64,000 nucleotides of DNA from Escherichia phage teqhad. The notes under the pieces are model-generated. The model did not search any database. It worked only from the letters and a program-made list of their open reading frames with translations, and had not been told where the DNA came from. The translations under genes were made by a program, and so were the position numbers. The number at the start of each line of letters is the position of its first letter. Positions within the stretch are counted from its first letter, which is position 1. Positions 55,956 through 59,810 of this stretch are shown here, piece by piece. The DNA lies in sequence record NC_054933.1, one strand, 5' to 3'.

Positions 55956-58900
55956 ATGGCTACTTTAAAACAAATACAATTTAAAAGAAGCAAAACCGCA
56001 GGTGCACGTCCTGCTGCTTCAGTATTAGCCGAAGGTGAATTGGCTATAAATTTAAAAGATAGAACAATTTTTACTAAAGACGATTCAGGAAATATCATTG
56101 ACTTAAGCATTTCCGCTGGCGGTAATATCAGTGGTAATATCACTCAAACTGGTGATTATACACAGACTGGAAAATTTAATTTAATTGGTCCGCAAATTGT
56201 AGCAAGCGGTGGATATATTGAGTTTAATTATCGTACTACTGGAAGTGGGGCTTGGTCCGGTCAACATACTGCGAAAGCTCCAATTTTTGTAGATTTAAGC
56301 TCAGCTACTTCCACATCTGAATATAATCCTATAATTAAACAGCGCTTTAAAGATGGAACTTTTTCATTAGGTACTTTAGTTTCTGAAGGTTCGTTGAAGA
56401 TTCATTATATCAATGAATCTGGCGATTCGAAATATTGGACGTTTCGACGTGACGGCGGATTTACTGTTGACGGTGGAGGTTTAGCAGTATCAGGAGGTAG
56501 TATAACTACATCTGGAAATATTGCAGCTATTGGAAATATTACTTCGCCTCAGATTAATACTAAAAATATTATTTTAGATACAAAAGCATTTGGACAATAC
56601 GATTCGCAATCATTAGTTCAATATGTTTATCCTGGAACAGGCGAAGAAAATGGTATAAACTATCTTCGTAAAGTTCGAGCTAAATCAGGCGGTACAATTT
56701 ATCATGAATTAGCTTCTGCGCAAACCGGAAAAAGTGATGAACTTTCTTGGTGGACTGGTAATACAGCCGTTAATAAACAAATGGGTCTTCGTAATGATGG
56801 GGCTTTAGTATTACGACGCTCACTCGCAATTGGTACAATTACAACAGATGAAAACATTAATAACTACGGCTCCGCTGGAGCAATGGGCGAATGTTATATA
56901 GTTATCGGTGATGCATCAACAGGCTTATCATACAAAAAAACTGGAGTATATGATTTAGTTGCTAGTGGTCTTTCTTTAGCATCTATTACTCCTGATAGTT
57001 TCCGTAGTACCCGTAAAGCGATTTTTGGTCGTTCCGAGGACCAAGGTACAACATGGATTATGCCTGGAACCAACGCCGCGTTTTTATCGGTTCAAACACA
57101 AGCTGATGAAAACACTGCTGGAGACGGCCAGACGCATATTGGCTATAACTCAGGCGGAAAAATGAACCACTATTTCCGTGGTAAAGGCAAAACTAATATT
57201 AATACTCAAGAAGGCATGGAAGTTAACCCGGGTATTTTGAAATTGGTAACTGGCTCTAATAATGTAATGTTTTATGCTGATGGCGGTATTACATCTGTTA
57301 AGCAGCTTTCAATATATAATGGCATATATTTAGCAGCTAATAATTCTACTGCTGGGCTAACATTCGCTCCAACTACTACAATTGATGGCACTAAGCAAAT
57401 TTTGTGGGAAGGCGGTACTCGTGCTGGTCAGAATAAAAGCTATGTAACTGTTAAAGCATGGGGTAATTCATTTAACGCATCTGGCGATCGTAATCGTGAA
57501 ACGGTTTTTGAAGTAGCTGATGGACAAGGATATTATTTTTATTCACAGCGTGTGGCTCCAAGTGGCTCTGAAACTACTGGGCCTGTTGTAACCCAGTTCA
57601 ATGGACAAGTTAATGCTAGAGGAAGTATTATTACTGACGGAAGTTTTAAAGTTAATGGATTAAGCACTTTAGTCGGTAATGTTACCATGTCTAATGGTTT
57701 GTTTGTCCAAGGTGGTTCTTCTATTACTGGACAAGTAAAAATTGGTGGAACTGCTGATGCATTAAGAATTTGGAATGCCGAATACGGTGCTATTTTCCGT
57801 CGCTCAGAAACAGCATTACATATTATCCCGACTCCTAAAGATGCCGGTGAAAGTGGTGGAATAAGTAATCTCCGCCCACTTAGTATTAGTCTTAATAATG
57901 GTATGGTACAAATGCGCCATTCTGTTACGTTAGGCGATGATGGCGCTGGCGGTAATATGATTACTGTGGACAACGATACCAAACTTGTTGTTGTTACTAG
58001 TAATAGTCGCATTTCTCCTAATTACCGTATGCAGGTAGGACAAGCAGCTTATATTGATGCTGAATGTACTGACACAGTTCGCCCGGCTGGTGCAGGGTCT
58101 TTTGCTTCACAAAATAATGAAAACGTTCGTGCTCCATTCTATATGAATATTAATCGTACAGATACAAGTACTTACGTTCCTATTTTGAAACAACGATATG
58201 TCCAAGGAAACAGTTGTTATTCTCTGGGAACTCTAATTAACGGCGGTAACTTCAGAGTTCATTATCATGAAGGCGGCGATGGCGGTTCGACTGGCGCTAT
58301 TATAAAGGATTTAGGTTGGGAATTTACCAAAAATGGTGATTTTATATCTCCTAAGCGTGTTTCTGCTGGTGGTTCAGTTTATTTAGGTACAGACGGCAAT
58401 ATTACAGGTGGTTCTGGCAATTTTGCTAATTTAAACAGTACAATTGAATCACTTAAAACCGATATTGTATCGAGTTACCCAATCGGTGCTCCTATTCCAT
58501 GGCCAACGGATACTCCTCCTGACGGTTACGCTATTATGGAAGGCCAGACTTTTGATAAGTCTGCATACCCAAAATTGGCTATGGCTTACCCATCTGGCGT
58601 AATTCCAGATATGCGCGGGCAAACTATTAAAGGTAAACCAAGTGGTCGAGCTGTATTAAGCGCAGAAGCCGATGGTGTTAAGGCTCATAGCCATAGTGCA
58701 TCGGCTTCAAGTACTGACTTGGGTACTAAAACTACGTCGAGTTTTGATTATGGTACTAAGACGACAAGTAGCTTTGACTATGGCACTAAGACTAGCAATA
58801 CCACAGGTAACCACTCTCATACTGTAAGCGGTACTACGAGTTCTGCTGGTGCACACCAACATGCGCGCTCAGGTCCTCAGATACAAGCCGGCATACCCAA

Positions 58901-59231
58901 TAACATATTCTATGACGGATATAATAGTGTAGGTGCAAACGCCAACGCTAAATTCACTGGAACCGTGAACGGTGCTACTGCAGGGTCGAATATAGCCAAA
59001 ACTTCTTCAGACGGTGCTCATACTCATACTTGGTCTGGTACTACAAGCACTACAGGTAACCATGCTCACACAGTAGGTATTGGTGCTCATACCCATACTG
59101 TAGGTATCGGTGCTCATACCCACACGGTAGCAATTGGCTCGCATGGTCATACTATCACTGTAAATAGTACAGGTAATACAGAAAACACGGTTAAAAACAT
59201 TGCTTTTAACTATATCGTTCGTTTAGCATAA
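55956..59231 (+). CDS. 37: long tail fibre distal subunit gp37 (receptor-binding tip with His-x-His repeats)
   Basis: 1091 aa; C-terminal GxHxH repeats and ...NYIVRLA end. Confidence 0.92.
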
Positions 59232-59258
59232 GGAGAGGGGCTTCGGCCCCTTCTAAAT
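59231..59258 (+). promoter_or_regulatory. gene 38 translation initiation region: SD, hairpin, AUG
   Basis: AGGAG at 59231-59235, GGGGC-UUCG-GCCCC hairpin 59237-59250, ATG at 59259. Confidence 0.6.
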
Positions 59259-59810
59259 ATGAAAATATATCATTATTATTTTGACACTAAAGAATTTTAC
59301 AAAGAAGAAAATTACAAACCGGTTAAAGGCCTCGGTCTTCCTGCTCATTCAACAATTAAAAAACCTTTAGAACCTAAAGAAGGATATGCAGTTGTATTTG
59401 ATGAACGTACTCAGGATTGGATTTATGAAGAAGACCATCGCGGAAAACGAGCATGGACTTTTAATAAAGAAGAAATTTTTATAAGTGAAATTGGAAGCCC
59501 GGTTGGTATAACTTTTGATGAGCCTGGCGAATTTGATATATGGACTGATGACGGTTGGAAAGAAGACGAAACATATAAGCGAGTTTTAATTCGTAATAGA
59601 AAAATTGAAGAATTATATAAAGAGTTCCAAGTTTTAAATAATATGATTGAAGCTTCTGTCGCCAATAAAAAGGAAAAATTTTATTATAAAAACCTTAAGC
59701 GGTTCTTTGCTCTTTTAGAAAAGCATGAGCATTTAGGTGGTGAATTCCCTTCATGGCCTGAAAAAGAACGGAAACCTTGGTATAAGCGTTTATTCAAGCA
59801 TTACGTATAA
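59259..59810 (+). CDS. 38: tail fibre assembly chaperone gp38 (T4-type)
   Basis: 183 aa; SD-hairpin-AUG initiation region upstream. Confidence 0.88.
   Translation: MKIYHYYFDTKEFYKEENYKPVKGLGLPAHSTIKKPLEPKEGYAVVFDERTQDWIYEEDHRGKRAWTFNKEEIFISEIGSPVGITFDEPGEFDIWTDDGWKEDETYKRVLIRNRKIEELYKEFQVLNNMIEASVANKKEKFYYKNLKRFFALLEKHEHLGGEFPSWPEKERKPWYKRLFKHYV

Follow-up and report, generated by a model that had tools for sequence, protein, structure and literature searches.

Gene 37, gene 38 and the layout of the fibre tip

In the window analysed here, a stretch of 64,000 nt from the genome of Escherichia phage teqhad (NC_054933.1), the product of the 1091-aa ORF is gp37, the distal subunit of the long tail fibre in a Tequatrovirus, and its gene is followed by gene 38 (Table 1). 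The full-length gp37 gene shares 99.2–99.8% DNA identity with its counterparts in FelixPlatter, KMB22, Ozark, FriedrichZschokke, AdolfPortmann, R5505, teqdroes and other phages, and the gp37 proteins of these named relatives carry few, scattered substitutions with respect to teqhad. The 24 kb around gene 37 are about 96–97.5% identical to the same phage group. Identity to T4 gp37 is 68% at the amino acid level, and the teqhad protein is, as stated in the initial annotation, the longer of the two (1091 vs. 1026 aa). An ORF of 157 aa, located antisense inside gene 37 (57539–58012, minus strand), is most likely a chance ORF.

Table 1. Genes, tip domains, repeat arrays and RNA hairpin at the gene 37–38 locus (positions in the window).
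Feature	Position	Strand	Basis
Gene 37, long tail fibre distal subunit gp37, 1091 aa	55956..59231	+	ORF
Collar (D10) domain, first part, aa 839–909 (T4 811–881)	58470..58682	+	Pfam PF07484; near-identical to 2XGF chain A; limits transferred from T4 (PMC6957217)
Ascending needle strand, aa 910–969, HxH at aa 911, 953, 967	58683..58862	+	HxH positions; 2XGF alignment
30-nt tandem array, 10-aa xxDLGTK/xxFDYGTK repeats, one copy more than T4	58715..58794	+	Tandem Repeats Finder
Head (tip) loop, aa 970–1021, 52 aa (T4 34 aa), TuIb-type	58863..59018	+	T4 and TuIb alignments
Descending needle strand, aa 1022–1074, HxH at aa 1022, 1036, 1045, 1054, 1063	59019..59177	+	HxH positions; 2XGF alignment
GxHxHxVxI array, four 27-nt units (36 residues), one unit more than T4	59055..59162	+	Repeat searches, alignment
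Collar domain, second part, aa 1075–1091, same as T4	59178..59228	+	Alignment
GGGGC-UUCG-GCCCC hairpin, between AGGAG Shine-Dalgarno and gene 38 start codon	59234..59253	+	RNA fold
Gene 38, T4-type tail fibre assembly chaperone, 183 aa	59259..59810	+	99% identity to T4 and TuIb gp38

The segment that had originally drawn attention (58690–59160) corresponds to aa 912–1069 of gp37. The T4-type tip fold is that of a homotrimer with metal ions octahedrally coordinated at each HxH layer, an arrangement that would be expected for teqhad as well. The proposal that this segment belongs to the C-terminal receptor-binding tip is borne out by a match over the full tip length to PDB 2XGF chain A (2xgf_A; phmmer vs. 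PDB, E = 4.2e-96, query 16–293 to chain 2–242) and by a Collar domain, PF07484, which precedes the needle at aa 844–891 (E = 2e-11, 43.9 bits vs. a cut-off of 24). In T4, D10 (collar) comprises residues 811–881 and 1010–1026, D11 (needle and head) residues 882–1009, and the needle holds seven irons by means of HxH motifs (PMC6957217); the chain turns back at the head, which gives a six-stranded needle (PMC12609058). Domain order, homologous HxH positions and the adjacent gp38 gene are common to teqhad and the T4 tip (2XGF; collar, needle and head, seven iron ions). Identity to T4 extends to the collar and the C-terminal 41 aa (1051–1091, 100% identity), and the protein ends in the T4 collar sequence ...NYIVRLA. 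In contrast, teqhad possesses an additional 10-aa repeat on the ascending strand, an additional 9-aa His unit on the descending one, and eight HxH boxes (three before the head loop, five after it) where T4 has exactly seven. The head loops also differ, that of teqhad being 52 aa long against 34 aa in T4 and about 40% identical to it (37–42%), with insertions of 15 and 3 aa. In the 2XGF alignment, gaps coincide precisely with the additional repeat, the head loop and the additional His unit. An AlphaFold2 monomer model of aa 799–1091 based on a 36-sequence alignment had a mean pLDDT of 50.9 and was confident for the collar only, needle and head staying below 50.

The initial annotation had also recognized gp38 as the T4-type chaperone, which agrees with its near-identity to T4 gp38 as well as with a match to PHROG 105 ("tail fiber assembly", E = 4e-45). 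A T2/T6-type tip, composed of a cleaved gp37 and a glycine-rich gp38 adhesin of ~260 aa, was rejected given the 183-aa length and chaperone type of gp38 and the ...NYIVRLA end of gp37. At the junction between the two genes (59229–59261), the gene 37 stop codon overlaps the AGGAG sequence, and this Shine-Dalgarno is situated ~23 nt upstream of the gene 38 ATG. The hairpin located between them lies within a block 98% identical to T4, and folding of 59215–59275 gave an MFE of -16.1 kcal/mol (z = -1.95). It looks like the known "split" ribosome-binding site of T4 gene 38, in which Shine-Dalgarno and start codon are drawn together by a hairpin.

With respect to T4, the locus has a mosaic structure. 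DNA identity to T4 is 95% from gp34 through codon 49 of gene 37 (including 55956–56101), while DNA alignment detected no similarity to T4 at 56102–56568; identity is 76–79% over 56569–58760, is again absent from the DNA alignment at 58761–59087, and reaches 98.2% from 59088 through gene 38 and t to the end of asiA. The stretch 56102–56568 encodes aa 50–205 of the N-terminal shaft, which are 20–37% identical to T4 with a net gain of 16 aa; to judge from these alignments, the mosaic includes this as a second segment that has nothing to do with the tip. The junction at 59088 is placed inside the GxHxH array, within a His-box unit. Tetart and colleagues are said to have described, in 1998, recombination at conserved motifs, and the position of this junction fits conserved motifs serving as recombination sites.

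Tandem arrays in a TuIb-type tip

Tandem Repeats Finder assigned 2.7 copies to the 30-nt array (58715–58794; 74% matches, score 83) and 2.4 copies to a 27-nt period at 59067–59130 (86% matches, score 100), and a separate repeat search recovered the same 30-nt and 27-nt families. The initial annotation had quoted two peptide strings from this region. The first one, of 35 residues, occurs literally at aa 921, while the second is not found as quoted: the true 33-residue string opens with the His unit GNHAH (GNHAHTVGI) and not with GAHTH (GAHTHTVGI). Alignment with T4 showed that repeat number is not the same in the two phages, teqhad having one extra 10-aa and one extra 9-aa unit. These repeats supply 19 (+10, +9) of the 65 additional gp37 residues and the head loop supplies 18 (52 vs. 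34 aa), while the remaining 28 are distributed outside needle and head (+16 net in aa 1–250, +11 at aa 652 and +1 at aa 805). The repeats explain less than one third of the gain in length over T4.

The two full FDYGTK copies (58722–58751 and 58752–58781) encode one and the same decapeptide, with 0 of 10 aa but 8 of 30 nt differing between them, among these a serine codon switch (TCG/AGT). This upholds the earlier observation that the copies differ synonymously and do not stem from recent slippage. When the FDYGTK copy was given 8 random substitutions, none of 200,000 variants retained the peptide; the copies are therefore old and subject to purifying selection. Between neighbouring His units, 5–14 of 27 nt differ. 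Tandem repeats of 27–30 nt are typical substrates for slippage or mis-assembly, yet the chance that the arrays arose by recent slippage or through faulty assembly of the sequence is practically nil, as the same sequence is present at 100% identity in nine records and again in the 1990 Sanger sequence of TuIb, copies differ at 8/30 and 5/27 nt, and the same architecture is found in distant prophage fibres. We rejected this explanation on these grounds. A recent duplication of the laboratory T4 type, in which the copies are identical in DNA, likewise does not correspond to the diverged copies observed here or to the occurrence of the architecture in distant prophage fibres.

The closest reference for the tip is the C-terminal part of gene 37 from phage TuIb (GenBank X55191; Montag, Hashemolhosseini and Henning 1990, J Mol Biol 216:327). 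Over the last 267 aa of gp37, to which the comparison is limited as X55191 does not contain the rest of gene 37 (N-terminal 824 aa), 264 residues are identical, and tip DNA is 99.3% identical. All three differences are located in the head loop, at aa 1000, 1003 and 1005 (F1000I, T1003S and N1005S in TuIb); repeat numbers and gp38 are the same in both phages, as is the head loop apart from these substitutions. Judged by its sequence, the teqhad tip is a TuIb-type allele of the T4-family gp37 receptor-binding tip and not a new one. We found the 832-bp tip DNA to be 100% identical in the nine records mentioned above, which represent eight distinct phage genomes, and 99.9–100% identical in the BASEL phages FelixPlatter (Bas40), FriedrichZschokke (Bas41) and AdolfPortmann (Bas44).

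For the latter three phages, whose OmpC dependence was typed experimentally, OmpC is listed as the primary receptor, and the ompC dependence of Bas40 has been complemented genetically (PMC8594841). OmpC is also among the listed receptors of TuIb (PMC9659904). T4 itself can, according to the literature, also use the LPS of E. coli B as receptor. Several T-even phages fail on E. coli B REL606, which is devoid of OmpC, and this was ascribed to OmpC or Tsx dependence (PMC8594841). By analogy with phages that carry the same tip and depend on OmpC according to the literature, that of teqhad can be labelled as presumably OmpC-dependent.

Spacing of HxH boxes in T4-type tips

We classed tips by the spacing of their HxH boxes, using explicit spacing classes, in three sets: 119 homologues from a protein database, most of them side-tail-fibre proteins of prophages; 75 IMG/VR viral contigs; and 10 annotated phages, of which PhiZZ6, VR7, F2, SHBML-50-1, sutha, SP18, slur03 and JS09 are T4-like, while SEN5 is P2-like and Yersinia phage vB_YenM_27 is unclassified. 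The pool, with teqhad, T4 and TuIb, holds 205 tips with 100 unique sequences and 26 head-loop families; its members are phylogenetically related and were recruited by conserved flanking motifs, a procedure which aberrant architectures could escape. Classing of 299 phage records by match length only was rejected, since head-loop length confounds needle class; the classes cover retrieved sequences only.

All 205 tips share one grammar, in which the first HxH box (H1) is followed after 31/32 or 41/42 aa by the second (H2), then by n modules of 14 aa, the head loop, again n modules of 14 aa, and finally two or three 9-aa steps. We found that an H1–H2 distance of 31/32 aa, which accommodates one FDYGTK repeat, is always accompanied by two 9-aa steps, and a distance of 41/42 aa (two FDYGTK repeats) always by three; in turn, the 14-aa modules are equal in number (0, 1 or 2) on either side of the head. 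Exceptions to this pairing were not found among the 205 motif-anchored, related tips (100 unique, 26 head families), although in two sequences a 15-aa or 16-aa step replaces a 14-aa one. The needles fall into four discrete length classes with 5, 6, 7/8 and 10 HxH boxes. According to a published statement, HxH count may scale with needle length (PMC12609058). That the needle of T4-type tips would be built from obligatorily paired modules is well supported by these spacings.

The tips at both ends of the size range obey the same rule. The longest needle, with 10 HxH boxes and a head flanked on either side by two 14-aa modules, was seen in a protein of 363 aa (P0041, source "lgn"; spacings 42,14,14,43,14,14,9,9,9). 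Minimal tips are those of Salmonella phage SEN5 (L090) and Yersinia phage vB_YenM_27 (L091); they have 5 HxH boxes and a single FDYGTK-like repeat, lack 14-aa modules and show two 9-aa (or 9 + 8) steps. Beyond the T-even phages, the same collar-needle-head module, built by the same grammar of paired repeats, forms the C-termini of Stf-like side tail fibres in E. coli and Shigella prophages of the lambdoid and P2-like kinds. These fibres differ from gp37 in their short (230–510 aa), unrelated N-terminal shafts and in assembly proteins that come from a different family. In two prophage tail fibres of 450–455 aa, from Shigella sonnei and S. flexneri (P0001 and P0002), the tip is 81–87% identical to that of teqhad, its head loop being TuIb-like and its needle of the 8-HxH form. 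The tip module evidently moves between T-even and temperate phages.

The description of the teqhad tip as repeat-expanded holds with T4 as the yardstick, teqhad having more copies, but it is T4-centric. The 8-HxH form occurs in seven of the eight T4-like phage tips fetched for comparison, and because of this T4 is to be seen as the shorter variant and the teqhad allele as no unusual expansion; the long FDYGTK spacing is present in 59 of the 100 unique tips.

Published contacts within the T4 tip, G921–F970 and G964–H929 (PMC6957217), together with the D11 limits (882, 1009) yield an antiparallel register of i + j ~1892, extrapolated linearly from the two contacts and the two domain limits. This register sets every ascending xxDLGTK/xxFDYGTK decapeptide against one descending HxH box. 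The two tandem arrays of gp37 would then be two sides of the same structural layers of a hairpin needle, each ascending 10-aa repeat probably standing opposite one descending 9-aa GxHxHxVxI unit, and the needle could be lengthened only by simultaneous insertion on both strands.

Head loop, needle length and receptor choice

The initial annotation had put forward repeat number and inter-repeat loops as plausible determinants of specificity, with expansion creating new receptor contacts. The region does belong to the host-range-determining C-terminus. Laboratory T4 host-range mutants with duplications here, in a small domain of the adhesin, were reportedly described by Tetart in 1996, so that copy number can, by that account, alter host range. 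According to the summary in PMC5221442, Bartual 2010 proposed docking models with additional contact between OmpC and the side of the needle. Our comparison speaks against this role. The repeat sequences are almost invariant over 26 unrelated head families, and one head can sit on a 7-HxH as well as on an 8-HxH needle: four head-loop families were found on both needle lengths, the same 45-aa head being carried by sutha on a short needle and by SHBML-50-1 on a long one, and the TuIb-like head (ARSGP...NIF.DGY...) being placed on a long needle in teqhad and on a short one in the homologue P0008. Another head family is combined with one pair of 14-aa modules in L011 and with two pairs in P0041. 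Purifying selection for one peptide is moreover the opposite of what a diversifying contact surface would be expected to undergo. In T4, mutagenesis by alanine and amber scanning located the contacts with LPS and OmpC in the head, in the segment that separates the third HxH from the fourth (residues ~929–958), while folding depends on glycines and histidines of the needle (PMC6957217). Near-constant modules, purifying selection and T4 mutagenesis therefore argue for specificity residing in the head loop and not in repeat number, which as a host-range determinant we consider very improbable. By analogy with T4, the head loop at aa 970–1021 is likely the receptor-contacting part.

A different role for the repeats would lie in geometry instead of contacts. 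Needle length (5–10 metal layers) would be quantised and could itself be selected, independently of the head, e.g., for reach to OmpC through LPS or O-antigen and for spanning surface layers of differing depth above the porin. Both the assortment of length classes independently of head family and the existence of four discrete classes would suit such an adaptive parameter. The pattern could equally reflect neutral variation limited by the need to fold, and we regard an adaptive role of needle length as rather unlikely.

The explanation we favour, and hold to be very probable as a whole, is that of a TuIb-type tip with paired repeat layers, a receptor-setting head loop and a dedicated chaperone. 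The gp37 chain would run from the collar up the needle, form the head loop and return downwards, so that three chains build a needle of six strands with HxH boxes arrayed along its axis, each of which binds one metal ion in T4. With one pair more than T4, the teqhad needle would be longer by about one layer, and its eighth HxH site would presumably also hold a metal. The choice of OmpC would depend chiefly on the 52-aa head loop, and not on the repeats, if the contacts mapped by mutagenesis in T4 apply here, and gp38 would act as the chaperone folding the gp37 trimer.

Sequence, repeats, receptor and fold of this tip are already in the literature, and the paired-module rule is a modest refinement and a natural consequence of the known hairpin architecture; it opens no new biological question. 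An explicit statement of the rule, or of the independent assortment of head and needle length, was not found in the searchable literature. For annotation, the finding means that the tip can be labelled as a TuIb-type, putatively OmpC-dependent adhesin. For the construction of chimeric fibres, it implies that junctions would best be placed in the conserved His-box or FDYGTK modules and that the number of modules should be equal on both sides of the head, as otherwise the hairpin needle would be unlikely to fold.
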